A DNA stretch of 64,000 bases from a virus (Duplodnaviria > Caudoviricetes), in the IMG/VR virus record IMGVR_UViG_3300044624_003554, positions 1 through 64,000 of that record. One strand, given 5' to 3'. The notes below the pieces were generated by a model, which saw nothing but the letters and a program-made list of their open reading frames with translations, ran no database searches and was not told the origin of the DNA. The position numbers and the translations under genes are program-made. Shown here in pieces: positions 3,001 to 63,998 of the stretch. Each line of letters begins with the position of its first letter. Within the stretch, counting starts at the first letter, position 1.

Positions 3001-3715
3001 TTCAGAATTAGAAATATCTAAAAGTGGATGGAATGTTCAAAATGGAATTTTTGAAAAAATTAAAGAATCTGTAAAAAATGGAATAGATAGTCTTGTTACT
3101 GGTTCATCTTTTTCTTTAAAAATTAAAAATTTAAATCAGCCAATTTTTAAAATAATGTCAATTACTGAAAATTATATAAATGAATATAATTTATTGGCAA
3201 CAGAATATAATCCGCAAAAATTTAAATTAATAGAGGAAAACTCTTCAGTGGACGATTTAAATAATACTTTTAATTTTATTTCAGCTTATAATTCAAAAAA
3301 TAATAACTATTCTGAACAAGCGCTATTGAAGGCTCCCATATTTAAATCATTGCAATATTTTATCGATCCAAAATATGGAAAAAAATATTTAAATATAAAG
3401 TGGGCTCCATCAAATCCAGATCCAAATTTATTGTATCAAATATTTATTCAAACTCCATCAAAACAAACAAACAATTTATCAATTTTAAATATTGATTCAA
3501 GGAATTATAACGTAATAAATAATGAATACGAAATTAACTTTGATTTGGAAAAAGCAAATTTTGAAATTGGAACGTATCAAGTATCAATTTCCTCTTCTAC
3601 ACAAATAGTAACTGAGGGCGGAGGAATTTTAAGTGCAAAATCTGTTTTGGGAAATAATTTCCTAAATAGAATATCAAATATGACTTCTAGAACTGTTCTA
3701 ATTTTGGAATATTAA
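2..3715 (+). CDS. Tail tip / host-specificity protein (lambda gpJ-like), 5'-truncated
   Basis: Frame open from position 2; gpJ-like motifs FSYPFSSMVGMKIDSRAF, WDGTFKLMWTNNPAWILMD, LYKIARWCD, GVTSKGQARRLG. Confidence 0.85.
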   Translation, partial: VNGKEIRDTLNFESVKNYFKNKNWTIEHKRSDIFFEILGAFTNLFNFNAGNQGAVKHLTASEMFTVSSLNIQERASALPVKREPFFFNGSFIVILNKNNNKISLILNDSNKSDQYINFDNNLEDINFIDYINESKILSVGGGLPYGQLGQGQWVQTSYYSINNFIYFQIDNSACSYIPARGVNGFNGVREGAVWNHTFFGGVPEFAPETSEYTNLRFHSKQGLVGTLCYQDRFCHLSRNYSYLNDGTTIFYYTAAEWSSFKINRLIAKRSPQPDSSYCYGFISNLYLYRDFAPGQTFFNPTFKSDAFVNKTRIITADYAQESILNNRNILYIIESLLQGKGIISRDIKIKNYIAAPTASQKAKTNNNDIEIVYFRNIPFSNIDSDSNNTFANDAGLAIKLPAPKYYSDGTPFRRYVKVTKLSYETLSPLISKRVALAKITEIIPQKFSYPFSSMVGMKIDSRAFSQIPTRTFDCKLKKILVPSNYFPNDEDGEDVRYVDGTGKYKIYDGDWDGTFKLMWTNNPAWILMDMLVNKRYGLGNYISSDQIDIWELYKIARWCDGVDDNGYYYGVPDSYGGTEPRHAFNGIITEKFNVFDMINQIASIFRGHVYYMNSMITFDDDRLKPIIGEFNNSDVKDGIFNYTNHKKDDEFTAVEVAYIDEKDNYKPKIEYVEDSDGIRKRGILKKQINAFGVTSKGQARRLGLHFLFQTSKENMNVSFITDMKALLYKPGDLIGINDELLSSYKNFGKVEKIENINDDKFKIVVSPAICESFLDASEITLYTPRSKPKYDDILSSVESYPYQLKITTQNLITKKSDGSYVVREYDFAVTQDKNLINGAYSYTGNIVFDCSVDPKCTIILKTCLSYIKNYDINNNFSTKYGHWKLTTGSSDNTRQDFYLFDSVADLVLKNTNPKKEYYFSFFDSGKYMRFTGESLDGEPLYENSGFSMTGNTSEPFKICVDSFFGYKNGLISYPQIIENDRPSVENFKIITGCHCANGGYSELEISKSGWNVQNGIFEKIKESVKNGIDSLVTGSSFSLKIKNLNQPIFKIMSITENYINEYNLLATEYNPQKFKLIEENSSVDDLNNTFNFISAYNSKNNNYSEQALLKAPIFKSLQYFIDPKYGKKYLNIKWAPSNPDPNLLYQIFIQTPSKQTNNLSILNIDSRNYNVINNEYEINFDLEKANFEIGTYQVSISSSTQIVTEGGGILSAKSVLGNNFLNRISNMTSRTVLILEY

Positions 3716-41920: not shown

Positions 41921-42428
41921 CAAAAACAAAATTTTTCTCAAAAAAGATTTCAAACTACAACCGAAAACTTGGCCAAGAGATATTGGTTTTGATGTTAAGG
42001 CCATAAAGGAACCTGAAATCTGTGGATCAAAATATATTGATGGTTTATATTCCAGCGTTGATTATATTGAATATGACACTGGAGTTTGTTTAGACACAAT
42101 TCAAAGAAATACTGAAGAAGATATTTTTACTCTTGTATTTCCAAGATCCAGCATAAGTAAAAAGAATTTAACTTTAGCTAATTCTATTGGTCTTATAGAT
42201 CCAGAATGGAGGGATTCTGTAAAATGCCGATTTAAATATGTAGCTCAACCAGAAGATTTTGTTTTCCTTGAAGGCAAATGCTATATACGTTTAAACATGG
42301 AAAAAATTTACAAAATTGGAGATAAAATTTGTCAGTTTGTTTTCTTGAAAAATGAAACTATAGAAATTCAATACGTAGATCAGTTAGCTGAATCTGGTAG
42401 AGGTGGATTTGGTAGTACTGGAGATTAA
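41910..42428 (+). CDS. dut: dUTPase (trimeric)
   Basis: GFDV, FPRSSI, NSIGLIDPEWR, GDKICQ, RGGFGSTG. Confidence 0.9.
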   Translation: MNNNKNKIFLKKDFKLQPKTWPRDIGFDVKAIKEPEICGSKYIDGLYSSVDYIEYDTGVCLDTIQRNTEEDIFTLVFPRSSISKKNLTLANSIGLIDPEWRDSVKCRFKYVAQPEDFVFLEGKCYIRLNMEKIYKIGDKICQFVFLKNETIEIQYVDQLAESGRGGFGSTGD

Positions 42429-42429
42429 T

Positions 42430-43017
42430 ATGATAATAGGAATTTCTGGTTACGCAAGAAGTGGAAAAGATACTTTTGGACTTTCCCTTCAAAGAATTTT
42501 AAAAACTTACAAAATAGAATGTACTCTAGATGCATTTGCAAATGTCTTAAAAGAAGATTTAGAACCATTTCTTTTAGATAAATTTAAAATTTCAGCATTT
42601 ACAAAAAATGATGCGGAAAAATTCTTGATAAGACCAATGCTTGTTGCTTACGGTGAATCCAAAAGAAATCAAGACCAAGATTATTGGATAAATCAAATTA
42701 AAGAAAAATCAAAAAATAAACTAACAATCATAACAGATGTTCGTTATGAAAACGAAGCAAAATGGATTATTAATAGTGGTGGATTTTTAATACATTTAAA
42801 TCGTCAAAAGAGTGATGGTTCATATATAGAAGCTCCAAATCCTCAAGAAGCTAAAAACAACCCTAAAGTTGCAGAATTAGCTTCTTTAAAAATAGTTTGG
42901 CAAACTGTAGAAAATAATGGAGTTGTAGACGAAGAAACGATAGATAAAATTGTTGAGTCTTTTATTTGCAGTTGTGACGACCTAACGGAAAAACTGCAAT
43001 CATGGAAAACGACATAG
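42430..43017 (+). CDS. Deoxynucleoside monophosphate kinase
   Basis: MIIGISGYARSGKD, RPMLVAYG, DYWI, IITDVRYENE. Confidence 0.85.
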   Translation: MIIGISGYARSGKDTFGLSLQRILKTYKIECTLDAFANVLKEDLEPFLLDKFKISAFTKNDAEKFLIRPMLVAYGESKRNQDQDYWINQIKEKSKNKLTIITDVRYENEAKWIINSGGFLIHLNRQKSDGSYIEAPNPQEAKNNPKVAELASLKIVWQTVENNGVVDEETIDKIVESFICSCDDLTEKLQSWKTT

Positions 43018-43577
43018 ATTTAATAGAAAAAGTAAAAAAAGAAAACGATCAAAATAGTTTGACAAAACTAATCGAAAGGCATTCTGGCATTTATTTAGAA
43101 ATGGTAAATTCTGTAATACCAAATAATTGCACTTTTTTAGATAAAAATGATTTGATTGAAGATAAAGACTATTCAATTTACAAAGCAATTCTTGCTTTTG
43201 ATCCAAATAAAAAAGCTAAATTTTCAACTTATCTTGGCAATGAAACAAGATGGAAATGTTTAAATCTTTTTAATAGAGGAGTTAAATATCAATACGTAGA
43301 TATTGAAGAGTATAAAGAAGATGGAAAATTTTCAGAATCAGATAAAGTTGAAAAAATTTCTTGCAATGAGATTTTGGATAAGATATTTTCTATAGCGTCT
43401 TCTCATCCAGATAAAAGAGTTTTCAAAATTATTAATTTAAGATACAATGTCGGAAGCGGAAATAAATTAATGTCTTGGAAAAATGTCGCTAAAGAAGTAA
43501 ACGTCAGTATACAAGGATGTATAAATATTCACAATAGATTCTTGGAAGAAATAAAAAAAGAAATAAATTATGTATAA
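43002..43577 (+). CDS. Phage sigma70-family sigma factor
   Basis: Region 2 (IYKAILAFDPNKKAKFSTY) and region-4 HTH (LRY..SWKNVAKEVNVS). Confidence 0.8.
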   Translation: MENDIDLIEKVKKENDQNSLTKLIERHSGIYLEMVNSVIPNNCTFLDKNDLIEDKDYSIYKAILAFDPNKKAKFSTYLGNETRWKCLNLFNRGVKYQYVDIEEYKEDGKFSESDKVEKISCNEILDKIFSIASSHPDKRVFKIINLRYNVGSGNKLMSWKNVAKEVNVSIQGCINIHNRFLEEIKKEINYV

Positions 43578-43962
43578 TAAAGTAGTATTAATAGGAAATG
43601 TAGTTAAAGATGTCGAAACAAAAGAAGTTGGCTCTTCTTCCGTTTCAAGAATTAGATTAGCAGTGGACGACCCATTTAGGGAGAAAAATACCGTTTATAT
43701 TGATTGTGAAGCTTGGGGCGATCAAGCTTCATTCGCCCAAAAGTGGTTAAAAAAAGGATCTGGAATTATTGTTGATGGCAGATTGTGTATGGACTCTTGG
43801 GAGAAAGACGGTAAAAAGGAAAGTAAAATTTTCGTAAAAGCTCAAGAAATTAGATTTTCAAACGTTGGACCTAAATCTGAAAAATCAGACCAAGAGCCAG
43901 CAAAGCAAAACAAGGCCACCAAAAGTAAAAGTGTAGAAGAAGATTCAGAAGTACCATTTTAA
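43570..43962 (+). CDS. ssb: Single-stranded DNA-binding protein
   Basis: YNKVVLIGNV, IDCEAWG, KKGSGIIVDGRL, acidic C-terminus EVPF. Confidence 0.92.
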   Translation: MYNKVVLIGNVVKDVETKEVGSSSVSRIRLAVDDPFREKNTVYIDCEAWGDQASFAQKWLKKGSGIIVDGRLCMDSWEKDGKKESKIFVKAQEIRFSNVGPKSEKSDQEPAKQNKATKSKSVEEDSEVPF

Positions 43963-43964
43963 TT

Positions 43965-45029
43965 ATGGATTTAATAGTAGAAGCACCACTTAATTCACTA
44001 AGTTTTGGAAATGTCTCTTACAACATATTAAGAGAATTGTTTAAAGCTGGCAAACAAATTGCCTATTTTCCAATAGGTGATCCAGATTTATCCGCAATGC
44101 AGCCAAGCCAAGAGTTTATGCAATGGCTTAATGAAGCTGCAAATCGAAGATATGAAGCTTTAAATAAAAATTTAAAAACTTTAAAGCTATGGCATCTAAA
44201 CGGATCTGATTCATTGAGGTCCAGAGAACAATATCTTTTGACTTTCTACGAAAGTAATAAGCCTACCGAAATTGAAAAAAATATTGCTAACTTGCAAGAC
44301 AAAACAATTTTCTCATCAAAACATGCTTCAGATTTATTTGGAACTCAAGATACTTTTAAGTTGGGATTTGACGAAGACTTTCACATAACTGGAAAAAAAT
44401 ATTTAGAGAACGTAATTCATTTTGGAATTTTTGGTAAATTTGAAAAAAGAAAACATACTGAAAAACTAATCAAGACATGGTTGAAAAAATATGGAAACAA
44501 TAATAAGTATTTACTTTCTTGTTGTGTAACAAATCCATTTATCAAGCCAGAGCAAATGCAGCAAATTATTGGTGCATGCTTAGAAGGAAAACATTACTCA
44601 AATATAAATTTTATTCCTTGGTTAAAAACTAACAGAGAAATGAATGAAGTTCTTAATGCTATTGATATTGATCTAACTGGCATGAGTGGAGGAGAAGGTT
44701 GGAATTTGCCAGCATTTAACGCTACATGCCTCGGCAAGTGGAGTATTGTTTTAAACGGCACAGCTCATAAAGAATGGGCCAATGAAGATAATTGTATTCT
44801 TGTTCAACCAAATGGTGAGCAAGATTCAGAAGATGGTATCTTCTTTAAAAACGGAACTCCATTCAACCAAGGAACATTTTTAACATTTGATGAAAATGAC
44901 TTGATCTCTGCTATGGAAAATGCCGAAACAAAAGTGGGTCAAATTAACTCACTTGGCACACTGCTGGGACAAACTTTCACATATAAACGTGCCACTGAAG
45001 AGATTTTAACCTTAATTGGTTTGGCATAG
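43965..45029 (+). CDS. Glycosyltransferase, GT4-like
   Basis: FGKFEKRKH, SGGEGWNLPAFNATCLGK. Confidence 0.7.
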   Translation: MDLIVEAPLNSLSFGNVSYNILRELFKAGKQIAYFPIGDPDLSAMQPSQEFMQWLNEAANRRYEALNKNLKTLKLWHLNGSDSLRSREQYLLTFYESNKPTEIEKNIANLQDKTIFSSKHASDLFGTQDTFKLGFDEDFHITGKKYLENVIHFGIFGKFEKRKHTEKLIKTWLKKYGNNNKYLLSCCVTNPFIKPEQMQQIIGACLEGKHYSNINFIPWLKTNREMNEVLNAIDIDLTGMSGGEGWNLPAFNATCLGKWSIVLNGTAHKEWANEDNCILVQPNGEQDSEDGIFFKNGTPFNQGTFLTFDENDLISAMENAETKVGQINSLGTLLGQTFTYKRATEEILTLIGLA

Positions 45030-45037
45030 TAAGTGCT
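45021..45037 (+). promoter_or_regulatory. Possible sigma54 -24/-12 element
   Basis: TTGGCATAGTAAGTGCT = GG-N10-GC spacing, upstream of hsp20. Confidence 0.35.
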
Positions 45038-45045
45038 AAATAGAT

Positions 45046-45408
45046 ATGCATATGTATTTAACAGACGAAATTATCAATCAAGCCTTTGGTCTAAAAACTA
45101 ATTTAAATTCAAATTCATTATCGACCTTGGCAAATCAAGGATACGCTGATGAAAATGGTATTTCTAAAATTAAATTTAGAGTACCTGGATATGAAAAATC
45201 AGAAATTAAATTAAGTGTAGATAAAGGATCTTACGGTAAAAAGATTTTAAATATTAAAGCCGAAAATCAAGAGTTTGGCGTTCTGAAAATTTCAGAAACA
45301 TTAAGCTCTACTGTTGACGAATCTTCAATTAAAGCTTCATTAAAAAATGGCATATTGACAATCACTTGTGAAACCAGCAACAAGACCATTCAAATTGATG
45401 TGGCTTAA
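45046..45408 (+). CDS. hsp20: Small heat shock protein (alpha-crystallin domain)
   Basis: VPGYEKSEIKL, VDESSIKASLKNGILTIT. Confidence 0.8.
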   Translation: MHMYLTDEIINQAFGLKTNLNSNSLSTLANQGYADENGISKIKFRVPGYEKSEIKLSVDKGSYGKKILNIKAENQEFGVLKISETLSSTVDESSIKASLKNGILTITCETSNKTIQIDVA

Positions 45409-52187: not shown

Positions 52188-52992
52188 AAAATCCTAAAAA
52201 GTCGTGTTTAACATCAAGGGTATTTTGGCTTGCAATTGAAACTGTAGAATTTATTAATTTAGATTTTCTTATTGGCAATTTAAAAAAAGAAGACGATCCA
52301 GAGACAATGATATCAAAATCTCTAAACCCATCGTCATTTTTTGAAAAATCAATTTCTTTTGAATTGTTTGGAATTTTTGAACTTAAAGAAATTTGTATTT
52401 GTAATGGCAAAATCGGACAAACTTCAGTCGGCTCTTTTTGTCCAACAGAATAATATGGTTGCCTATTAATTGTTAAGCTGTAATTAAAACCATATATATT
52501 GTATTTTTCCTTTAGATTTTGATCATAAAGTCCAGATATGCTTATTGAATTTAATTTTGGAATATCTAGTGGTTTAGAATTAATTGATCCTCCATCAAAA
52601 AATTCAATTTGTTTTAAATCAGATCCATATGATATGAATTCGGTGGAAATTTTAGGCAAATCTCCAACAGAAAAAGATGCGGAATAAGTTTTTAAAAAAA
52701 GATTTGTAATTGAATAGTAATTGTTTCCATCATATATTCTAAATTCTCTTACTGGATTTAATCCAGTATAATCAAACATGTTGTCATAATTAACAAAACT
52801 TCTATTAATTAAAACCTGTATTTCCTCTGGAGCATTTACGCTATAGGCGGCGTCAATTCCACCCAATGAAAAATGTTGATCATAAGATAAATTTTTTTGT
52901 AAATTTAAATCATTAATTCCATCTAATTCGTAGAATGAATCTCCAGCAATTCCAGACAAGTAATATAGTTTATAAATTGATGAGTCTATCAT
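52177..52992 (-). CDS. Tail structural protein following TMP
   Basis: ATGA overlap with the TMP stop; resembles 45861..47060. Confidence 0.55.
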   Translation of the reverse strand: MIDSSIYKLYYLSGIAGDSFYELDGINDLNLQKNLSYDQHFSLGGIDAAYSVNAPEEIQVLINRSFVNYDNMFDYTGLNPVREFRIYDGNNYYSITNLFLKTYSASFSVGDLPKISTEFISYGSDLKQIEFFDGGSINSKPLDIPKLNSISISGLYDQNLKEKYNIYGFNYSLTINRQPYYSVGQKEPTEVCPILPLQIQISLSSKIPNNSKEIDFSKNDDGFRDFDIIVSGSSSFFKLPIRKSKLINSTVSIASQNTLDVKHDFLGFYGL

Positions 52993-55900
52993 TATCTTAA
53001 CATGCCCCCTAATCTTCTCTCATCTTTTAAAACAGTTAAAACTACTTCTTTTATTCTCCTTGCCAATTCTTTATTTTGTTGATCTTGTCTTGAGTCGCTA
53101 TTTTGATTTTCTGTTTTTTCTCCTTTTCCATCAGAATTTACAGATATATTAATTGTTCCAACACCAGCTATTTTCTCTACAAGTTCTTCCAATTTAGCTT
53201 CTATTCTTGATGCCATTTCTCCAGTATTGCCAGATATTTCGCCAGTTGAATTTAATTTTTGTAAATTTCCATAGCCAGTTTTTTGTGCAGCTTGTTTAGA
53301 AACAACAAATTCTCCACCATTTAACATTGCTGGAACATTATCACCCATTCCATTGCCAGCTACATATCCGCCAGCAGCTCTTCTGACTACTGGAATTGCC
53401 ATCGGCGCAGTTCTGCCATTATATACAGACCTGTTTCTTCCATAAAATGAATCAAAATAAGTTCCAGAATTTAATGCAGTAGGAGTTCCTAGTTTATCAT
53501 AGGATGCGCCTAATGGAAATTGAGCATTGTAGGTATCCATACTCATTCTTGAATATGAATTTGTTTTATTGTTCCAGCTATACAATCCGCCACCTTGTTG
53601 ACCTAAAGCGCCAGCTCCAATTGTTGAGAAATCCTTGGTTGCAGAACTGTTGAAAATATTTGCCAATCCACCTCTACTTTCGCCGCCAAAAGATCCTCCT
53701 GTAAATGCTCCCGTAAATTTTTCTCCAAATGTCGCCGTCCTACCTTGTAAAGCTGCTGCTTGTTTGGTTGCACTTACACCTTTAGACATTGCGCTTCCAG
53801 CATAACTAACTCCAGCCATTATAGCTGTTGTTGCTAATTGGGTGACTAATGCTCTCTGAGCTTGTTTTTTAGCTTCTTTTTTAGCTTTTTCCCATTCTTC
53901 CATTTGTCTCTTGTATTCTTTTTCATTTTCAAAATCCATTCTTATCTTATCTTTGGAAGTTTGATAATCTTGAAAGTATAAATCTAAAGCTTTATTTTTG
54001 GATTCTAAGTATTGAGTATTTCTAACGTTGCCTTGATCGCGAAGAGCAAATAATGAAAGATTTCCACTTCCTCCAGCAATGTCAATTGAAGCAGAGTTGC
54101 CAGATGATGAAATTTTATCGTATTGAGTACCAACTGTTTCTTGAGTCGCAAATGAAAGTAAATTTTTCTGTCCAATTATTGCTCCTTGACCATAGCTTCC
54201 AGGCATGAAGAAGCCATTCTGTCCAGTCTGTTGATTTTGGTTATAAAAATTTGTTTGAGCCTTTAACAATGCATCTTGCTTATCTTCTTCTTTTCCTTGA
54301 TAATTTTCAATACCAGTCACCTTTCCGCTTTGATCGAATGAAAGACCAGCCATTCTATTCTCGCCATAAGTAGTATATTTGTTTGGATTTCTGATTAAAT
54401 CATTCAAATCAGTCTCTTGCATTCCATATGGCATGACTGGTCCACCAGCGGCAAAACCTTTCAATTTTCCAGAATTAAGTTTTTCAAAAAAATCTTTTCC
54501 ATATTTATTTACAACATCTTTTCTAATAACGTATTCGCCACCCATTAACATTGCTGGTACATCATCTTTAACTCCAGAACCGCCTTCAATTTCGCCTCCA
54601 GAAGCAAAACCAAGCGCTCCAGCAAGACCAGTTCCAGCTTGACCATTTCCAAAAATACCACTAGTAATTCTATTCGCTGCGTTAGTCATTAATGCTTCAT
54701 TGATTTTATTTACGAACGCTGAAGCGACACCCATTAATCTTTCTCCTAAAGACGCAGTAGAACTTGGATCTGACAAAACCCTCATTGCATCAACTAGTCC
54801 ATTTCTGAAATCTGTTGGAATTTGTTTTCCAAGTTTTCCTTGGAATTTAGTAATTTCGTCATCTATATCTCTTAATCCAGAGCGAAATCCCTTTCCGAAT
54901 TGTTCCTCTTGCGCAAATCTTTCATTAACTGTTCTTGTTTTATTCAAAGCAAGTTGATTTATATTTTGAGCTCTATCTACAAACGGAAGCGGTTGATCTT
55001 GATTAAATACTAAGGATGCATTTTTTTGAGAAAATTTATCTTTTTCTTGTTGAGCTTTTTCTTTTAAAGCTAAAGTTAACTCTTCTATTTTTATTGGTAA
55101 TTCTTCCGTATATTTTAGGATCGCTTCTTGATCTGCGCTTATGGGTCCAGTTTGATTTTTTATTATTTCAGCTTGTGGAGATAATGCATTAAAATCTTCC
55201 CTATATTTTTCTAGTTCAGCTTTCTTTAAAGAAAATTTTAACTCTTCATTTCTTGAATTACTTTGAACTTTATCTATTGGAGATGGAAAGGCTTTTCCTT
55301 CTTCTGTTGTTTTACTGCCAAAGCCTAAAGTTTTTAAATCTAAACCTTCAGGTTTAGATTCATTTTGCGCTATTTTCTTTCCTGTGACGAAAGATGCTCC
55401 AGCACCTAATATAATCTGTCTAAATTCTTTTGCCGCTTCTACTACTTGTTCTGCAAATGGATCTTTTTCCAATCCATACATTTTGTCTATGTTTCTATCT
55501 TCAATTGATTTGAGTATTTCTGGTCCTGTTTTTTCTCCTGTTAAAAAGCTATTTATTTCTGAAAGAGACGCGCCTCTAGACTGCAAAGTTTTGATTCCAG
55601 CTTGTCTGGACTGCAATGATCTTTCTTGCATTCTATCGGTATTTTCCTGCAATCCTCTTGTTCTTTCTTCTCCGATATTTCTATATGCAGCAGATTTTTC
55701 TGCTTGATATGGACTTAGTTGCGTTTGATAAAATTCAAATGCAGAATCTCTTAATTTTTGCTGCCAATCTCTTTCTTCTTTTCTGAGGTCGATTGCTTTT
55801 TGTGCATTTGTAATTTCCGCAGCTGTTAATTCTAATTTCCTATCTAATGCTCTTTTTTCTTGTGCAAAAATTAATTGCTTAATTGTTTGTTCTGTTTGAG

Positions 55901-58900
55901 CATTGATTAAAGCTTTAGGATCTTGAACAAAAGTTTGGCCAATCATTAGATTTGGAGCAGCAGCAGCACGAGCGGGAAGTCCAGATTCAGTTCTAGCGCT
56001 AGTAGGCAATTCTTCTTTAAAAACTCTACCTGCGGCAATTCGCGCTGCTGGTGTAACAGCGCCAGAACGCTCTATTTGATTAAAATAATCATTTGATGAT
56101 TCAAATCCTTTTGCAATATTAATTTGAGCTTGAATATCTGATTCAGAAACCGAATTTAGTATTTTAAATATTTCTTCTCCAACCGCCTTTCCTGCTTCTT
56201 GCGCTTTAATAAAGAATGCATCTCCAGCTTTAATAACCCTATCATTTATACTTTGGGCTTCTTTATCCAGAACTGTTTGAAGCGCTTGTTCTAAAGATTG
56301 ATAATCTTGGGCTTCTGTTATTTTTTGAACATCGCTTGCATTTGCTCCTCTTTGAAAGGCAATGTTTAATGCATTTAATCTGTCAGCTAATAATGCTGAT
56401 TGTCTTTGGATTTGATAATCCTCCATTTGTCTTGGCCCACTTGTAGCCAATGATCTTTCTAGATCTAATCTTTCTTTTACAGAAGGATCTTGATTTGGCG
56501 TTGCCAAGGTTCTGGTTTCGTATTGAATGTCGCTTATTTTTCTAACTATATCTAATCTCTGCCTGTCTTGATCTAATAATTTTTGATTTATACTTAATCT
56601 TGCGGTTAAAGATTCTCTTATAGTTGTTTCTATAAAGTTGTCTTTTGTTGCAATTGCTAATCTTTGATTTTCTATTAGAATTGCATCTCTTCTTGCAGCT
56701 TGTTGGCTACGAGTAAGTTTTTGTGAAAATTCTAACTGCCTAACTTCTTGCTCTAAATAACTTAAATATTGTTTTTTTTCAGCACTTAACTCTTTACTTC
56801 CGTTAACTGAAGATTTTATCGCTTTGACTTCATCTTGTGCAAATTTAATTCTTTGTTCATCAGTAGTTTGAGGATTGTATACATTTTGTGCAAATTTTTC
56901 CATTGCAGCAGTTCTTGTTGTGGCATAGTTTTCTGGCAAAGAAGTGCCTAGTCTTGTTATTGCAGTATTCTGTATATTTTTTACAAAATCAAAAGCAGCA
57001 CTTCCAAGCTGTTCGTTTGTTTGTCTTTCTTCCTGCTTTAATCTTAACTCAGCTTCAAGATTTGCTTTTTCTTGCGCGTTTACTGTTAATAATTCTTTTT
57101 TAAGCGCTAGATTGTTTTCTTCTGCAGAAGCATATGAAAGTATAACTTTTTGAAGTTCTCCAAATACATTTATTTGAGCTTTTAAAGTTTCTGCTGGAAT
57201 TAAAAATGATTCAGCAATAAAAGTTTTTACTAAATTTTCTACTCCAACTTTTTTGGCATTATCTTGGAAACTTTTTTGCAAATTTCCAAAAAATTTATCA
57301 AAATCTATTCTTCCAGAACTCACTTGTTTTGCAACAAATTCTTTTATTTCTTTGTTTGCTTCGTCTATTGTAAGTTCATTTGCTTTGACTTTTGAATTTA
57401 TTTTTTCTTTAAAATCTTTAAAAGTTTTAGATTTATCAACTTCTTCAAGCTGCAAATTTAATCTTGAATTTGTTGGTACATCACTTCTTTTTTGAAACGC
57501 TTGCATTTCTGCAAAACTTCCGAATTTTATCATTGATTTGTCTGCAATTTCATTTATTTTTTCTGCAACCATTTTATCTATTATTTCGGTTTGTGTAATT
57601 TTTTTATTGCCTTTTTTTCTTTCTGTTGTAAACTCTCTTTCTGCATCTGGTTGCACCATTTGAGTCAAACCTGAAAGTATACCTGTATTAACAGAACCCT
57701 CTAAACCCAAAGATTCAAGCGCATTTTTTGTTTTTTTAGTTTTATCTAAAGGATTTATATTTTGAAAATTAAACGTTCTATCAAAAGCTGTCGCAGCTTC
57801 AAAAGTTCCAACTTTTTTAACAAATGATTCAGATTTAGCTTTTTGTTCTTCAGTTAAATTTAAAGTATAGGTTTTTTGGATATCATTCAATCTTCCAAGC
57901 GCATCAGCAGTTCGATCTACAGTTTCTCCATATTTTTTATATACGCTATTTCCTATATCAAGAATTTTATATGTTGCGTAAATTGCAGCTGCTGGACCAG
58001 CTAAACCCGCTGCAATACCACCAATAGCCCCAGAAACACCAACTCCAGCAGTTCCAGCTACTCTTGAAAAATTTCCAGCTATTGATAAAGAAGATCCTAA
58101 TGAAGGCGCTCCTTCTCTACCAGCACCACCAAGTCTTAAAGCTTTTCCTACCCCAGAGCTTCTATCTTTTGTAAATCCCTCTAATACTTCTTTTCCCTGA
58201 GTGAATAACAAAACAACAGAAGAAAGTTCACTTAAAACTTCCGCTGCTACTTTTCCACTTTCTCCCAAAGAACTTATAGCTCCACTCACTAGTGAAATTG
58301 CGCTCTGCCATTTAATTAAAGTATATAAAGAATCTTGTACTGTTTTTGTTTGTTTTTCGTTTGTTGTTTTTCTATTTTGAGCATCTTTACCTTCTTGAAC
58401 AGTGTTTTGAGTTGAAGCTTTTGATTCTTTTTGATTTGTATTTGTGACCTCATTTCCACTTGAAGTAATTTTATCAAAAACTTGATATACAGCTTCTCCA
58501 CTCACTCCCAAATTTTCAGCAATTTTCTTAAATGCAGTATCAAGATCTGTCGATGAATATTTTAAATTCTCAAGAGCTTCTTTTATTGCATTGAATAAAT
58601 CGCCATTCATTCCAGACGGAGCTGAAAAATTTGGAACTCTACCATCTGGTTCGTCACGATTGTTTATGACCGCATATCCGTCTGGATTTTGCGGTCCGCG
58701 CACGCGAGCGTCTTGAACGACTTTAATCGCTGACAATGGCAAGCCAGATTCTTTTTGTTCACGATCTATTGCATTTAAAATTGCTTGTTTTGAAAAATTT
58801 GGAATGTATCCTTTTGCAGCAGTTCTTTCTGGAGCATCTTCTGGCGGCGGACCTTTATACCCATACTTCAAAAAGTCTTCCCTTCTTTTCATTTTTTTAG

Positions 58901-61900
58901 GGAATTTTCTCTTAAGTTCAGCTTCTGTTTTAATCCTATTTAATTCTGCTTCAGGTTCTTGAGCTTTTTGCGCAAATTTCAATTGCTCTATTATTTCAAA
59001 TAGATCTATTCCCTCTGGCATGTTCAATAAATTGCCAATAATATTATTTGTTAATTCTTTTGCAATTGGTGAAAACTTTTTCGCACTATCCATTAATTTT
59101 TTTATAAATGGATCGTTTCTAGTTACTTCTCCATCACCATCAACATCTTCAGCCGCAAAATTTGGTACGTATCCTACCGCTGCAGTTTTGCCCACATTTG
59201 TACTTCCCATTGTGTCGTACATAGTATGCAAGCCACCTTTGCTGCCAGCAATTCTATTAAATTCTTCGACATTTAATTTTAAAACTTCTGCATATGGATC
59301 TCCACCTTTAAATAATTCTTTAGTTTTCTGTATCAAAAATTTTTGCATTACTTCGTTAACTTTGAAGTTGCCAGCATAAATATCGTAAAGTCTTATTGAG
59401 TCTGGTCCATATTTTTGCTTATAAGCTTTTAAGATATTATCCGCAGCTTTTTGGGCCATAGCTTCGGATAAACCAAATGCAAACATTTGTTCCTGTGGTT
59501 TTTTGCTAAGAGCTTGTGTGACAAACTCATCTACACCAGAACCGCCAACCACCTCACGCTCAAAGCCAGCAAGTTTAGTTTCGTCACCCGTTTGAGGATA
59601 TGTTAACAATTTACCAATGTCAGTAAATGAAATTGCATTTTGCTTAAATAAGCTTGAATTTTGTTTTTCAAATTGTTTCAAAGCTTGATTTACGTTGTAT
59701 TCTTGTGCAATTTTTTCAGCACCTGGTTTATAGAATATTTTTTGACCCAGTTCGTCTTTAGACTTTGGAATTAAGAATTTTCCACTTTGACCGCTACCAA
59801 CTTCTGTAAAATTAGGATCTTCATAAAGCATTCCAACTCCCTTGCCCATCAGCTGCTTTGTGTCAGAAAAATTTGGAATAAAACCTTCTACCGCAGTTTT
59901 TGCAACATCATAAGTTTGAAGCGACTTTTCAAAATTAATATTCTCCCAATCAGAAACTCCAAAATCTCTTAAAGTCTCTAAAATAGTTCTGAGATTTTGA
60001 AACTCAGCTTGGTTTGCAACAACCATTTTCTTTTTAATTTTATCGTAAGTAAAATTAGATTTTATTTTTTTTGCAAGAAATGGATTTTTTTCAGATAATT
60101 TATTTAATTTGTTTTCAATTCCATATTCGCCTTTCCAGCCTGTAATGAATGCGGTGCTTGTTCTACCATATTTATCTTCTTTGGTTTTTTCATAAGAACC
60201 ATATGGATATTCACTTTTTTCAATTATTGAAAGAACGTCAGAAGCATTAAATTTAGTTTTATAGAACGTAGAATCTTCTCCTTCAGATGGACGTTTTTTA
60301 GGATCTTTTAATACAATTCTATCCAATTTAGATTTACCAACTCTTTTGAGTTTATCTGGAGTTTCAAGAGGCATGACAAATCTCCTTTCCTCTTGAAGCT
60401 TGTCAACTTTTAATTTATCTGGAGCAAGTAAATTTCCGTATTGATCTATGTCAACACTTTTTCCTAAAGCTAAAAATTCTGCATCGTCTCGACCTATTGT
60501 AGTCATTATAGCAGATATTTTAGTTTTTAATCTTTTTGTTAGTTCGTCTATGACTACTGGTCTAAATTGAGTAACTAGTTTTGATATTTTACTTTCTTCA
60601 CTTGGAGCATTGATTGAACGAACTCCAGCGCTGGCTTTTGTTTGATATATTTGAGCCCAAACATCTTGCATGTTTCTATTTTTAGCAATAATGTCAAATA
60701 TTTGACCTAATTTTTCATACTTTAATTCCCTTGCAAAACCACTAACCTCTCCAGTTACGACTTTATTTTCATCTGTTTTAATTTCTGGCATTTCGCCAAA
60801 AGCAGTTTTGTTAGTTTTGCCAGTTTTATAATTTGCAAATGCTGACATTAACCTTCCATAATAAGCTTTATCAAGATTTCCATCGCTACCAACTAAATGA
60901 TAATTTGGCCCTAAAATAGAAGCCGCCATATCATTTTTAATTTTATTAATGTCTAAATTTTCATTGTTTTTTGTTCCAGCTAAATCAGTTGTATATGTTT
61001 CGTCACCGCCAAGTCTATACTTTAACTGTTCAAGAGTAGCTGTTTTCACCCTATCACCAAAAGTCATTAATGGTGCATTTTTTAGTTCTTTTATTGCAAA
61101 ATTGGGAACGTAACCTTCGGATGCAATGAAGGCCGAATCACTAGGTAAAACTAAATTAATTGTCTTTAAATCAATTTCATCTTTTTTTGGTTTTTTCCCA
61201 ACTCCATTATTTGCAATATTATTTTTAGGTTGGTTGCTTAACCAATTATTCACTCCCTTTCTTAAAACATCGAAAGCTGATTGTTTCGCTCTCGTTCTTA
61301 CTTCTGTTTGATTTGGCAAATCAAAATAAGAATTTCCAGATGTTAAATTTTTCTTTAACGCTTTGGAGGCAGCTATTTCTCCGATAACTCCCTGAATTCT
61401 AAATTTTAAAGCTTTAAATTTATCACTATAATCTTTTTTGTTTTTAGGATCTACAGTTTGATACAGAGACTCAATTGCGGATAGCGAAGATCGATCAACG
61501 CCAGCTTTACTCCATTCAGTAAAATACTCATCTTTTATTTGGGAATTTTTATATCCATTCTTTTTATTTCCAATTAATCTTTTTGCAATTCTGTCAGATT
61601 CAGATCTGAAAAAACCAATAGTCTGATCTTGTTTTTCTTCATTTTTTCCTAATCTTTTAACTTTGATTCTTGCTTTAAATTCATCAAATGGGTCTGCATA
61701 TTTTGCATTTTTTAAATTTTTAAAATCTCCAACTTGTTGTTTTTTAATTGTGGATTCTATTGCAAAATTTGGAATATAACCCTGAGAGGCAGTTTTTATT
61801 TTTTCCTGCGGATTTACTTTAACTTGAGCTAGAAGTTTAGCCTTTAAAGATTCTCCACCATTCTCAGAAAGCTGTTGTATGAATTTTGTACCAAGTTCGT

Positions 61901-63998
61901 CATTAAGAGCTTTTTCTGAGGATTTAATTTCGACATACTCCCAAAACTTTTTCGGCAATCCATATTGTTCTGCAATGTCTGGCTTTAATCCATATATGTC
62001 AAATCTACTATTTGAATCATTAAAGAATTGACCAAAATTATCATCTTCTGCAGACATGTTTGCCATTTTAAGCATTGTCTCGAAAAATGTTCCCGCCATG
62101 CTGTCGTTAACGAAATCGAATTTTCTTCCACTTTTCATCAAATACTGCATTGTTGCAGTCGGCTTTATGCCCAAAGAACTCAATTCATCTTTTATGAAAG
62201 TTCCAATTTGAGGACTTAATGCGTCATTTGCTTTTTTGATAAAGTGATTTTTAATGTCTTGTTCACTTGCCTCAAGTGAGTCTAAATTTTCATCGCGCCT
62301 TCTATAAATATTTCCAACATCTACGTTTGAGAAATTAAGTTTGCTATAATTTGATAATGCGTTTGATAAAGCTGGATCTTTTATTTGAGAAAGAATTTGC
62401 GGCGTTATTTCTTTCGACCTGACAGCCTTCCTTCCAGTTCCACCTATCGTTAACCCAGCAAACGAATAAGAACCTCCATCAATAGTTAAACTCTTTAATA
62501 GATTTTCTTTTTGCTTTTCTTTTTCTTTTTCCTCTGCAAAATTTGGAACATATCCAAGGGCCGAAAATAAAGTTGGTTTTCCAGTTCTTGTTTTTGAATA
62601 AGAAGGCACAACGAAATCACCCATCGGAGTTTTGTATACAGACTCCATTGAGTTAACTATCATTGTTCCCCTGCCTTCTGTTGGGCCAAAATTAAAATTT
62701 GAAATTTCTTTTATTGAAGCTCCCGCTGGGGCTTCTTGCATTTCCATTTTTCTAGCAACATCTTTAGGCATATATCCACCAGCAGCAGTTTTTGCTTTGA
62801 CATTTTTCGTTCCTTCTTCAGTTAATCTAATTCCACCTTCATAAACTGATGGTCCAATGTCTTTACTTAATTTAGACATTTTTTCCAAGGTCGCGGCTTG
62901 TTTTGAATACAAACTTAAAAGATATTCAGCCTGTGCGGTTTTATTGCCTTCTAAAGAAACAATTTTACTTTGAACCGCTGTATTTTGAAGCAATAAACCC
63001 AGTATAGATTTTTCTATATCTTGTTGTTCTTTTTTAACATTAGTTACGCCGAGTTGATTCTTTAAACTGTCAACTCCAAATTTAGCAAGATCGCCAAAAA
63101 GCTTAATACCAAGACCAGCAATTAAAAGAGCACCTGGACCTGTGATAACTGCACCTATTCCCTTAACAATTGCCTTTCCAATTGTTGCGCCACCTTCTTC
63201 TCCACCAGAAATACTTTCATTTAAAGATTCGAGAAAAGAAGAGGTCTTATTTAAAATAGATCTAAAATCATCTGAAAAAGCAACCTTGCCAATCGTTGCG
63301 GCAAATTGAGTTCCAGAGGTCGTTAATCTATCAAACGAAGCCTGAACTGTTTTATTTAATTCATCTAGCTTTTTAAAACCTTGATTGCCTGCGTTTGTCG
63401 ATTGTTCTAAACTTCTATTAAATGTGCCATTAGCGTTTGATATATCATTAAGAAGTGCAGCTAATTTATCAATTTGAAAACCGCCACCGATTTTTATTAA
63501 AAGACCTTTTCTTGTTGCAGAATCTAAGTTTTGAAATTCGTCTGCAAGTTTTTTAATGATTGTTGTAGCTGGAAGAATGTCGCCACTAGCATCATTTACT
63601 GCAATACCTAAATTTCTAATATAATCAAGATTTTCAGTAGTCTGAACTCTTTGGAAAATTGTTTTTAAAGCGTTACCGATAACAGCTCCACCACGTGCAG
63701 TTTTTTCTTGCAATGTGGTAATTAAAGCTGTTAATTCATCAAATGAAACTCCAGCTTCTTGAGCTACGGAAGCTGAACGGGAAATACCCTCAATTAAATC
63801 TCTTGAACTAACTGCAAATTTAGTATCAACTGCAGCTAATTTATTTACGACAGTTTCGTAATCTAAGCCAACTTGATTAAATGACAAAACAGCAGCAGTA
63901 AGACCCTTTACCGCCTCTGCCGCATCTAAACCAGTTGTTCTAGTTAATACTAATGCTGCCTTTGCTTTCATCAAGGAATCTTCTAGAGTTCCGCCTTG
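52992..63998 (-). CDS. Tape measure protein (TP901-type), >3660 aa, start outside window, carrying inserted cassettes
   Basis: N-terminal LTAAVLSF..VVNKLAAVD..SASVAQEAGVSFDE..RGGAVIGNALKTIF; TM-like segments; C-terminal AxGG..DxVPAML.GGE(Y/F)V motif x2; frame open to the window edge. Confidence 0.88.
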   Translation of the reverse strand, partial: QGGTLEDSLMKAKAALVLTRTTGLDAAEAVKGLTAAVLSFNQVGLDYETVVNKLAAVDTKFAVSSRDLIEGISRSASVAQEAGVSFDELTALITTLQEKTARGGAVIGNALKTIFQRVQTTENLDYIRNLGIAVNDASGDILPATTIIKKLADEFQNLDSATRKGLLIKIGGGFQIDKLAALLNDISNANGTFNRSLEQSTNAGNQGFKKLDELNKTVQASFDRLTTSGTQFAATIGKVAFSDDFRSILNKTSSFLESLNESISGGEEGGATIGKAIVKGIGAVITGPGALLIAGLGIKLFGDLAKFGVDSLKNQLGVTNVKKEQQDIEKSILGLLLQNTAVQSKIVSLEGNKTAQAEYLLSLYSKQAATLEKMSKLSKDIGPSVYEGGIRLTEEGTKNVKAKTAAGGYMPKDVARKMEMQEAPAGASIKEISNFNFGPTEGRGTMIVNSMESVYKTPMGDFVVPSYSKTRTGKPTLFSALGYVPNFAEEKEKEKQKENLLKSLTIDGGSYSFAGLTIGGTGRKAVRSKEITPQILSQIKDPALSNALSNYSKLNFSNVDVGNIYRRRDENLDSLEASEQDIKNHFIKKANDALSPQIGTFIKDELSSLGIKPTATMQYLMKSGRKFDFVNDSMAGTFFETMLKMANMSAEDDNFGQFFNDSNSRFDIYGLKPDIAEQYGLPKKFWEYVEIKSSEKALNDELGTKFIQQLSENGGESLKAKLLAQVKVNPQEKIKTASQGYIPNFAIESTIKKQQVGDFKNLKNAKYADPFDEFKARIKVKRLGKNEEKQDQTIGFFRSESDRIAKRLIGNKKNGYKNSQIKDEYFTEWSKAGVDRSSLSAIESLYQTVDPKNKKDYSDKFKALKFRIQGVIGEIAASKALKKNLTSGNSYFDLPNQTEVRTRAKQSAFDVLRKGVNNWLSNQPKNNIANNGVGKKPKKDEIDLKTINLVLPSDSAFIASEGYVPNFAIKELKNAPLMTFGDRVKTATLEQLKYRLGGDETYTTDLAGTKNNENLDINKIKNDMAASILGPNYHLVGSDGNLDKAYYGRLMSAFANYKTGKTNKTAFGEMPEIKTDENKVVTGEVSGFARELKYEKLGQIFDIIAKNRNMQDVWAQIYQTKASAGVRSINAPSEESKISKLVTQFRPVVIDELTKRLKTKISAIMTTIGRDDAEFLALGKSVDIDQYGNLLAPDKLKVDKLQEERRFVMPLETPDKLKRVGKSKLDRIVLKDPKKRPSEGEDSTFYKTKFNASDVLSIIEKSEYPYGSYEKTKEDKYGRTSTAFITGWKGEYGIENKLNKLSEKNPFLAKKIKSNFTYDKIKKKMVVANQAEFQNLRTILETLRDFGVSDWENINFEKSLQTYDVAKTAVEGFIPNFSDTKQLMGKGVGMLYEDPNFTEVGSGQSGKFLIPKSKDELGQKIFYKPGAEKIAQEYNVNQALKQFEKQNSSLFKQNAISFTDIGKLLTYPQTGDETKLAGFEREVVGGSGVDEFVTQALSKKPQEQMFAFGLSEAMAQKAADNILKAYKQKYGPDSIRLYDIYAGNFKVNEVMQKFLIQKTKELFKGGDPYAEVLKLNVEEFNRIAGSKGGLHTMYDTMGSTNVGKTAAVGYVPNFAAEDVDGDGEVTRNDPFIKKLMDSAKKFSPIAKELTNNIIGNLLNMPEGIDLFEIIEQLKFAQKAQEPEAELNRIKTEAELKRKFPKKMKRREDFLKYGYKGPPPEDAPERTAAKGYIPNFSKQAILNAIDREQKESGLPLSAIKVVQDARVRGPQNPDGYAVINNRDEPDGRVPNFSAPSGMNGDLFNAIKEALENLKYSSTDLDTAFKKIAENLGVSGEAVYQVFDKITSSGNEVTNTNQKESKASTQNTVQEGKDAQNRKTTNEKQTKTVQDSLYTLIKWQSAISLVSGAISSLGESGKVAAEVLSELSSVVLLFTQGKEVLEGFTKDRSSGVGKALRLGGAGREGAPSLGSSLSIAGNFSRVAGTAGVGVSGAIGGIAAGLAGPAAAIYATYKILDIGNSVYKKYGETVDRTADALGRLNDIQKTYTLNLTEEQKAKSESFVKKVGTFEAATAFDRTFNFQNINPLDKTKKTKNALESLGLEGSVNTGILSGLTQMVQPDAEREFTTERKKGNKKITQTEIIDKMVAEKINEIADKSMIKFGSFAEMQAFQKRSDVPTNSRLNLQLEEVDKSKTFKDFKEKINSKVKANELTIDEANKEIKEFVAKQVSSGRIDFDKFFGNLQKSFQDNAKKVGVENLVKTFIAESFLIPAETLKAQINVFGELQKVILSYASAEENNLALKKELLTVNAQEKANLEAELRLKQEERQTNEQLGSAAFDFVKNIQNTAITRLGTSLPENYATTRTAAMEKFAQNVYNPQTTDEQRIKFAQDEVKAIKSSVNGSKELSAEKKQYLSYLEQEVRQLEFSQKLTRSQQAARRDAILIENQRLAIATKDNFIETTIRESLTARLSINQKLLDQDRQRLDIVRKISDIQYETRTLATPNQDPSVKERLDLERSLATSGPRQMEDYQIQRQSALLADRLNALNIAFQRGANASDVQKITEAQDYQSLEQALQTVLDKEAQSINDRVIKAGDAFFIKAQEAGKAVGEEIFKILNSVSESDIQAQINIAKGFESSNDYFNQIERSGAVTPAARIAAGRVFKEELPTSARTESGLPARAAAAPNLMIGQTFVQDPKALINAQTEQTIKQLIFAQEKRALDRKLELTAAEITNAQKAIDLRKEERDWQQKLRDSAFEFYQTQLSPYQAEKSAAYRNIGEERTRGLQENTDRMQERSLQSRQAGIKTLQSRGASLSEINSFLTGEKTGPEILKSIEDRNIDKMYGLEKDPFAEQVVEAAKEFRQIILGAGASFVTGKKIAQNESKPEGLDLKTLGFGSKTTEEGKAFPSPIDKVQSNSRNEELKFSLKKAELEKYREDFNALSPQAEIIKNQTGPISADQEAILKYTEELPIKIEELTLALKEKAQQEKDKFSQKNASLVFNQDQPLPFVDRAQNINQLALNKTRTVNERFAQEEQFGKGFRSGLRDIDDEITKFQGKLGKQIPTDFRNGLVDAMRVLSDPSSTASLGERLMGVASAFVNKINEALMTNAANRITSGIFGNGQAGTGLAGALGFASGGEIEGGSGVKDDVPAMLMGGEYVIRKDVVNKYGKDFFEKLNSGKLKGFAAGGPVMPYGMQETDLNDLIRNPNKYTTYGENRMAGLSFDQSGKVTGIENYQGKEEDKQDALLKAQTNFYNQNQQTGQNGFFMPGSYGQGAIIGQKNLLSFATQETVGTQYDKISSSGNSASIDIAGGSGNLSLFALRDQGNVRNTQYLESKNKALDLYFQDYQTSKDKIRMDFENEKEYKRQMEEWEKAKKEAKKQAQRALVTQLATTAIMAGVSYAGSAMSKGVSATKQAAALQGRTATFGEKFTGAFTGGSFGGESRGGLANIFNSSATKDFSTIGAGALGQQGGGLYSWNNKTNSYSRMSMDTYNAQFPLGASYDKLGTPTALNSGTYFDSFYGRNRSVYNGRTAPMAIPVVRRAAGGYVAGNGMGDNVPAMLNGGEFVVSKQAAQKTGYGNLQKLNSTGEISGNTGEMASRIEAKLEELVEKIAGVGTINISVNSDGKGEKTENQNSDSRQDQQNKELARRIKEVVLTVLKDERRLGGMLR
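58626..62786 (-). repeat. Eight copies of the AxxG(Y/F)xPNF-type linker within the TMP
   Basis: Cores at 62763-62780, 62538-62555, 61764-61781, 61098-61115, 59868-59885, 59157-59174, 58794-58811, 58626-58643. Confidence 0.9.

Follow-up and report, generated by a model that had tools for sequence, protein, structure and literature searches.

A predicted protein kinase-like cassette in the giant tape measure protein of an uncultured freshwater phage

The 64,000-nt stretch of DNA analyzed here (IMG/VR record IMGVR_UViG_3300044624_003554, positions 1 to 64,000; referred to below as the window) is of metagenomic origin and belongs to an uncultured freshwater phage. It carries a long open reading frame (ORF) for a tape measure protein (TMP), inside which lies a module of 231 residues, fenced by short linkers and predicted to adopt a protein kinase-like (PKL) fold (Table 1). 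The ORF is the phage tail TMP by its domain, by its giant size, and by its position ahead of distal-tail and fiber genes. In addition to the Pfam domain, the N terminus matched PHROG families of TMPs and showed 28 to 32% identity with the TMPs of large Bacillus phages. A profile of the whole protein retrieved from the PDB only another TMP (8zdo) and coiled-coil proteins. Downstream of the TMP gene, we found a weak Phage_min_tail match, below the cutoff of that family, and a gene for a 1369-residue Laminin_G_3 protein. The TMP is longer than 3668 residues. About 143 additional N-terminal codons are expected, because the window sequence aligns with the TMP of a close relative (P0029) from residue 144 of the latter, and the whole protein should comprise approximately 3.8 thousand residues.

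Table 1. Coordinates of the tape measure protein gene, of its kinase-fold cassette, and of other features of the window
Feature	Coordinates	Strand	Remarks
TMP ORF	52992..63998	-	3668 codons in the window; 5' end runs off the window
PhageMin_Tail domain (PF10145)	63483..63995	-	TMP residues 2-172; Pfam E value 5e-23
Hydrophobic membrane-like segment 1	63072..63176	-	TMP residues 275-309, upstream of the cassette array; Kyte-Doolittle scan
Hydrophobic segment 2	57972..58061	-	TMP residues 1980-2009, downstream of the cassette array; Kyte-Doolittle scan
Cassette array	58626..62777	-	Seven G[YFR][IV]PNF linkers plus a degenerate one, GYMPKD (eight in all), separating unrelated modules
Further cassette of the array	61116..62555	-	TMP residues 482-739
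Opening linker of the kinase-fold cassette	59868..59885	-	GFIPNF; similarity to the kinase-less P0029 breaks exactly here
Kinase-fold cassette	59175..59867	-	TMP residues 1378-1608 (module residues 1-231); stop-free translation
Predicted N-lobe	59556..59810	-	Residues 20-104: β1-β3, αC, β4-β5; DSSP of model 1, same in model 2
Gly-rich loop G24-x-G26-x-x-G29	59781..59798	-	GSGQSG, between predicted β1 and β2; invariant
K43	59739..59741	-	GQKIF; candidate ATP-anchoring Lys, middle of predicted strand β3
E56	59700..59702	-	QEYNV; candidate partner of K43, first turns of predicted helix αC
Catalytic-loop-like D162-x4-N167	59367..59384	-	After helix 124-153, directly before strand 168-170; D162, 59382-59384; N167, 59367-59369
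Three-helix insertion	59241..59354	-	Residues 172-209, separating the β7-like strand from the β8-like one; both models
D218-T-M-G221	59205..59216	-	DFG-like metal-binding Asp, right after strand 214-216; D218, 59214-59216; invariant
Closing linker of the kinase-fold cassette	59157..59174	-	GYVPNF linker motif
Repeated C-terminal motif	about 53200-54610	-	Two copies, TMP residues ~3130-3180 and ~3560-3600
Low-complexity stretch	58341-58379		Pile-up of unrelated short contigs
Genes upstream of the tail genes	42403-45408	+	dNMP-kinase-like, SSB, and HSP20 genes

A minimal kinase domain had been proposed at this site from the sequence alone (referred to below as the original prediction), on account of motifs that follow one another in the order of those of canonical kinases. 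The positions given for G24 to G29, D162, N167, and D218 were exact, K43 and E56 lie between the Gly-rich and catalytic loops, and the module does reside within a TMP, between the linkers GFIPNF and GYVPNF. The complete pattern (GxGxxG..K..E..DxxxxN..Dx(1-2)G) occurs a single time in the TMP. Conservation of the motif residues, on which the original prediction depended, was also observed, since G24, G26, G29, K43, E56, D162, N167, and D218 were all invariant in 19 homologous cassettes displaying 48 to 99% pairwise identity. Invariant positions account for 61 of the 231 columns of this alignment (26%), and the naive probability that all eight motif residues are invariant is 2e-5. This is a fair test, because the residues had been chosen from one sequence without an alignment. 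N167 and D218 are separated by 51 residues, the usual spacing between the corresponding Asn and the DFG motif of kinases being about 13 residues, and the module extends for another 13 residues beyond D218, closing with a tail that is predicted to be disordered and leads up to the next linker. Separate translation of the cassette was considered and dropped, since no Shine-Dalgarno-like sequence precedes the internal Met codons present at its start.

The structure of the module was predicted twice. Model 1 was obtained with AlphaFold2 for the window sequence from an alignment of 20 sequences (pLDDT of 83.2 and pTM of 0.82; pLDDT of 78 to 83 for four of the five models). Model 2 was obtained for a homologue from another lake contig, 47% identical by alignment and 45% identical in the best tblastn segment (pLDDT of 84.0 and pTM of 0.82), and displayed the same order of elements. 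According to DSSP analysis of model 1, the N-lobe comprises strands 20-25 and 29-34 around the Gly-rich loop, strand 41-45, which holds K43, helix 51-69, which holds E56, and strands 84-91 and 97-104. Beyond the N-lobe, a poorly ordered connection leads to a long helix (124-153), to the D162-N167 loop, to strand 168-170, to the helices of segment 172-209, to strand 214-216, to D218, and finally to the disordered tail. As modeled, the elements follow one another as in a protein kinase as far as the DFG motif, the latter included. Both models lack an activation segment and helices αF to αI, with nothing following the DFG-like Asp. The three helices of segment 172-209 correspond to an insertion that the original prediction had located before its DxG motif; in the models, they probably fill out a small C-lobe in place of the one that has been lost. 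The observation exceeds chance expectation because the motif residues are invariant and because each of them is located on the expected kinase element of the predicted structure.

Comparison of the models with known structures retrieved kinases and kinase-like enzymes. Foldseek searches of the PDB listed nothing but protein kinases for model 1 (best E value of 1.8e-3, probability of up to 0.99, TM-scores of 0.24 to 0.44) and only APH(2'') phosphotransferases and protein kinases for model 2. In BFVD, a collection of predicted viral structures, Ser/Thr kinases from large DNA viruses and from some phages made up nearly all the named matches. VIA-align, which is independent of Foldseek, was used to compare each model with 48,161 PDB representatives. 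The 50 best matches listed were all PKL enzymes in both runs, plus three NIS synthetases in the run with model 1; the ATP domain of NIS synthetases resembles the kinase fold. The score at rank 50 was higher than 6, versus a stated background of 4 to 5. These matches included Rv3197 and ADCK3 of the ABC1 family, BRAF, PknB, PknE, YabT, PKR, and other eukaryotic-type kinases, as well as APH(2''), APH(3'), RIO1, RIO2, Bud32, HopBF1, NleH1, and OspG. Approximately 80% of the minimal effector kinases was covered (136 of 176 residues for HopBF1, 135 of 160 for NleH1, and 132 of 169 for OspG).

The location at which the structural alignments stop provided an assignment for the last motif. With model 2, residue 226 was the end point, facing BRAF 596, PknB 158, PKR 434, Bub1 948, APH(3')-IIa 210, TBK1 159, RIOK1 343, and ADCK3 509. 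With model 1, the alignments ended at residue 219 with RIPK2 165 and BRAF 595, at residue 226 with MK2 215, and at residue 225 with APH(2'')-Ia 400. By the numbering that we take to hold for these enzymes, the Mg-binding Asp of the DFG motif is matched in every case by the invariant Asp, which is D218 of the window sequence and D224 of model 2. D218 is assigned as the metal-binding Asp because the alignments stop at the DFG motif of the kinases. Two confident models, together with PDB matches that were, among those listed, all PKL or kinase-like enzymes, indicate that the module is predicted to have the bilobal PKL fold that had been proposed for it. The resemblance to RIO and APH enzymes was upheld in part: members of both groups were present among the fold matches, scoring no better than eukaryotic-type kinases, and no sequence match to their Pfam families was obtained.

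Sequence searches gave a different picture of the module, which appears to be an orphan without detectable membership in any sequence family. At an E value of ≤1, Pfam returned no family, including PF00069 and the RIO and APH families. The sole match in PHROGs, at 0.037, was to a family of unknown function. NCBIfam gave only noise far below the cutoffs, PADLOC gave no match, and PDB sequences searched with phmmer and with a profile of four sequences gave only noise (an esterase, a ferritin, and mt-SAF13). The best score obtained with ESM Atlas features was 0.78, with no usable named cluster. The family of truncated kinases Kinase-PolyVal (PF18762; cutoff of 27 bits) had no match at an E value of ≤10 on a contig carrying a homologous cassette and none for the module in the Pfam scan. 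The likeness to the kinase gp0.7 of phage T7, also part of the original prediction, was not retained, since hhalign gave it a probability of 0.1%. Lacking, in its models, the activation segment (APE) and helices αF to αI, and having no match to the hidden Markov model, the module falls outside the definition of the eukaryotic-type kinase domain (PF00069).

The distribution of the module was investigated in several collections. A HMMER scan of 1.84 billion representative proteins led to the identification of nine relatives, of which eight were giant proteins of TMP size (2236 to 4009 residues) and one was a 303-residue piece that contained the linker motif. A second search found the module in 18 proteins of TMP size (2236 to 4015 residues; 46 to 98% identity). 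No free-standing form was present among the relatives found, and a profile search of proteins of 416 to 2000 residues did not reveal the module, the latter result being weak evidence. Neither the GenBank phages, searched with tblastn, nor the GTDB species genomes contained it. In IMG/VR, a single-sequence query identified no locus and an alignment query identified two loci; two loci, one of them a duplicate, were present in the JGI metagenomes.

Close relatives of the window TMP showed that the cassette is optional. In ten TMPs that are 76 to 94% identical to the window TMP in a neighboring cassette, phmmer detected no trace of the module (E value of ≤10). Over residues 1 to 1378, the TMPs of P0029 and of the window are 94% identical, and the resemblance is lost at the first module residue. 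For P0030, the alignment picks up again at residue 1722, both the kinase-fold cassette and the next cassette being missing. The module is thus far an optional cassette, found in giant TMPs only. Joints skipping the cassette were not detected in the contigs of four freshwater runs, which is not evidence that the short form is absent.

The cassette belongs to an array located between the two hydrophobic segments of the TMP. The modules of this array are not paralogues of one another, similarity among them being limited to the linker. The latter, of approximately 10 residues, is strongly conserved (consensus ~A-[AS]-x-G-[YF]-[IV]-P-N-F-[AS]), with 140 copies in 20 TMPs and five to nine copies in each; a literature search returned no match for this motif. 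Most of the linker copies of the window share a TTCCAAATTTT core at the DNA level, which could act as a microhomology for the exchange of cassettes. The order of the cassettes varies, the kinase-fold module preceding a cassette of ~440 to 480 residues in some TMPs and following such a cassette in others. Directly after the kinase-fold cassette, two relatives (P0003 and P0013) have a GNAT acetyltransferase cassette, which in P0003 was identified at residues 1783 to 1852 (PF00583, E value of 6e-8), between linkers GHIPNF (residue 1752) and GYVPNF (residue 1959). The window TMP was compared, over residues 1 to 1378 and 1601 to 3668, with the nearly identical TMPs of P0029, P0030, and P0023. The differences consisted of entire cassettes and had their breakpoints at the linkers. 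The cassette at TMP residues 482 to 739 (Table 1) was present in all the TMPs of the group examined, with 74 to 94% identity among close relatives, and Pfam finds no family in it. Two copies of a motif, A-[AS]-G-G-...-D-[DN]-V-P-A-M-L-x-G-G-E-[YF]-V, the first of which matches phrog_13338, are present in the C-terminal region of the TMP. The linker may derive from this motif, whose opening A-A-G-G-Y-V resembles the A-A-x-G-Y-[IV] of the linker.

We consider it moderately likely that the module is an optional TMP cassette that folds as a PKL domain truncated after the DFG motif, is active as a phosphotransferase, and is delivered with the virion. The invariance of all the residues for ATP binding and phosphotransfer leads us to regard it as an active phosphotransferase and, most probably, as a protein kinase. 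Being part of the TMP, the module is built into the tail. The TMP would leave the tail first at infection and would carry the module with it, the copies traveling unfolded through the tail. The cassette array, flanked by its two hydrophobic segments, would reach the cytoplasmic side of the inner membrane, where the module would refold, bind host ATP, and phosphorylate host targets before phage genes are expressed. The module may also be cut free at the linkers. Virion delivery is made more plausible by published work on other phages, since in Thermus phage P23-45 the pre-early genes are transcribed by a virion RNA polymerase that forms the N-terminal part of the TMP (PMC10770324) and since the TMP of phage lambda was labeled during genome injection by a fusion of TurboID to the inner-membrane protein ManZ (PMC13190303). 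A membrane nuclease defense associates with TMPs (PMC13190303), and the delivery of truncated kinases and GNATs has been predicted for polyvalent phage proteins (PMC5512222). A more ambitious proposal, which we put forward tentatively and hold to be doubtful as a whole, is that the module represents a new orphan kinase family, in which the C-lobe is replaced by the helices located between β7 and β8, and an exchangeable unit of an effector array. Once threaded into the host and released, or made accessible, at the G[YF][IV]PNF joints, it would phosphorylate host proteins at the site of entry before phage gene expression. Possible targets in this proposal are transcription or translation factors or membrane-bound defenses that sense the TMP.

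Several observations weigh against an active, virion-delivered phosphotransferase. No sequence method linked the module to any kinase. The motif pattern alone is only weakly unusual for a reader scanning a protein of 3.7 thousand residues, since shuffling reproduced the same ordered pattern in 10 of 5000 cases for the module (0.2%) and in 65 of 500 cases for the whole TMP (13%); it provided a lead rather than evidence by itself. The family of cassettes appears shallow (at least 48% identity), which limits the power of the invariance. The fold scores are middling, with Foldseek E values never below 1e-3, TM-scores of 0.24 to 0.45, and ~60 to 65% of the module aligned at ~4 Å. The two models share most of one shallow alignment and indicate robustness to the target sequence, not independent support. 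The equivalence of K43, E56, D162, and N167 to kinase residues refers to positions in the predicted secondary structure, not to a residue-level superposition. The catalytic loop (D-I-Y-A-G-N) has no His or Arg before the Asp and no Lys after it, unlike eukaryotic-type kinases, and a core predicted to end at the DFG-like Asp may not suffice for catalysis. Close relatives do without the cassette. According to a rough calculation, the lumen of the tail tube would be too narrow for three folded 25-kDa copies abreast.

The alternative that survives best, which we judge unlikely, retains the PKL fold and differs in the reaction. The module would be an APH-type phosphotransferase acting on a small molecule (a metabolite, a signaling nucleotide, or an antibiotic-like compound), an enzyme with AMPylation-like chemistry, or a nucleotide-binding pseudokinase. 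APH-type enzymes scored as well as protein kinases in the fold searches and NIS synthetases were among the structural matches, and yet the large C-terminal helical subdomain by which APH enzymes bind their substrates is absent from the module. The lack, in the catalytic loop, of the Lys or Arg usually present in Ser/Thr or Tyr kinases and the lack of an activation segment or substrate-binding lobe in the models fit this alternative. A dead pseudokinase is argued against by the invariance of all the phosphotransfer residues, and effector kinases of similar size (OspG, NleH, and HopBF1) are true protein kinases.

It is improbable, in our estimation, that the module has no enzymatic role and serves the TMP as a structural element or spacer, the kinase-like prediction and the motifs being coincidental or vestigial. 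Every match listed in the four PDB searches made with the two models was a kinase or kinase-like enzyme, and the alignments ended exactly on the DFG motif, against which stand the middling range of the fold scores and the silence of the sequence methods. Chance produces the ordered motif set in whole-TMP shuffles, and invariance has limited power in a shallow family; nonetheless, all eight catalytic positions are invariant, compared to about one-quarter of the columns. A structural part that sets the length of the tail would not so easily tolerate the loss seen in nearly identical TMPs lacking the cassette, and an enzyme cassette of the GNAT type adjoins the module in P0003.

The DNA itself appears to be genuine. 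Both cassette junctions lie within contigs of two further freshwater studies, which cover 59085-61300 with 2 differences and 59040-61300 with 11 differences, and the stretch recurs in the lake and freshwater metagenomes of several studies. The population variants listed inside the module (59490, 59493, and 59835) all affect third-codon positions, as do most of those in the neighboring cassette, which fits purifying selection on the TMP frame. An assembly chimera or a miscalled frame, suggested by the uncultured metagenomic source and by the differences in cassette order among relatives, can be set aside for practical purposes in view of the bridged junctions and third-position variants, of an ORF open for 3668 codons, and of approximately 20 independent TMPs that hold the cassette between the same linkers.

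Other features of the window and of its relatives were recorded. Upstream of the tail genes and on the opposite strand, we found genes for a deoxynucleoside monophosphate (dNMP) kinase-like protein (PF04275 and PF21448), a single-stranded DNA-binding protein (SSB; PF00436), and the small heat shock protein HSP20 (PF00011, E value of 3e-6), the last of which is, to our knowledge, uncommon in phages. The window has no close cultured relative, and the closest matches to the DnaE-like protein in cultured phages were only 26 to 33% identical. The G+C content is about 31%, with values of 30 to 37% for the window, and related contigs are 145 to 152 kb in length. The short low-complexity stretch of the TMP gene (Table 1) draws many unrelated short contigs, reaching a depth of 302 in one run, with loose ends that are T rich. 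This pile-up is probably a mapping artifact of a simple repeat in a Lys-, Thr-, and Gln-rich part of the TMP.

If the proposed function is correct, the module would provide a further route by which phages act on the host before expressing their genes, alongside the TMP RNA polymerase of P23-45. Comparable cases of action prior to gene expression are Alt of phage T4 and the virion RNA polymerase of phage N4. The idea of polyvalent proteins, described for other phage and plasmid proteins, would be extended to TMPs. A very small kinase core unseen by sequence methods would be useful for defining the minimal catalytic unit of the fold and for annotating the orphan cassettes of giant TMPs. Pairs of nearly identical TMPs with and without the cassette would offer a clean natural comparison for the search of targets.

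Among known systems, type III effectors HopBF1, NleH1/2, and OspG, which are injected ready-made into the target cell, are similarly stripped-down kinase cores, of 160 to 180 residues. In these effectors, the remaining helices of the C-lobe follow the DFG motif, whereas those of the module are predicted to be inserted before the DFG-like Asp. They display no sequence similarity to the module and are free proteins acting in eukaryotic cells, not parts of a tail protein. At the very onset of infection, host proteins are modified by the Ser/Thr kinase gp0.7 of phage T7, the function that had also been proposed for the module; gp0.7 is made from an early gene and is not carried in the virion. Enzymes inside TMPs are also exemplified by peptidoglycan-degrading domains, and records of SPbeta-like phages annotate the TMP as a lytic transglycosylase. 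In contrast to what is proposed for the module, these domains target the cell wall, outside the cytoplasm, and do not need ATP.

The nearest counterpart in the literature is Kinase-PolyVal, a truncated kinase that phages and conjugative elements carry within their polyvalent proteins (Iyer et al. 2017, PMC5512222), and it resembles the module in having a PKL core that has lost the C-terminal subdomain and kept the residues for ATP binding and phosphotransfer. It also has an insert within the catalytic region, whose location may differ, and belongs to a very large phage protein of many domains that is predicted to accompany the DNA into the host, with GNAT domains alongside. The module differs in its lack of a PF18762 match and in its carrier, since the TMP is never mentioned in PMC5512222, and the signature residues of Kinase-PolyVal (a Gln located on the final N-lobe strand and a catalytic His) are not evident in it. 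The relation between the two may be one of distant homology or of independent truncation. The TMP of P23-45, gp96 (Chaban et al. 2024, PMC10770324), likewise includes an enzyme that uses ATP or other nucleoside triphosphates within a giant TMP and was shown to work in the host before phage gene expression. It is a different enzyme, N-terminal rather than internal and fenced by linkers, in an unrelated phage; by analogy, it may be regarded as the sole experimental precedent that we found for the delivery route. Compared to these systems, the novelty of the module would reside in the combination of a truncated PKL domain, predicted from structure and orphan in sequence, with a new carrier, the TMP.

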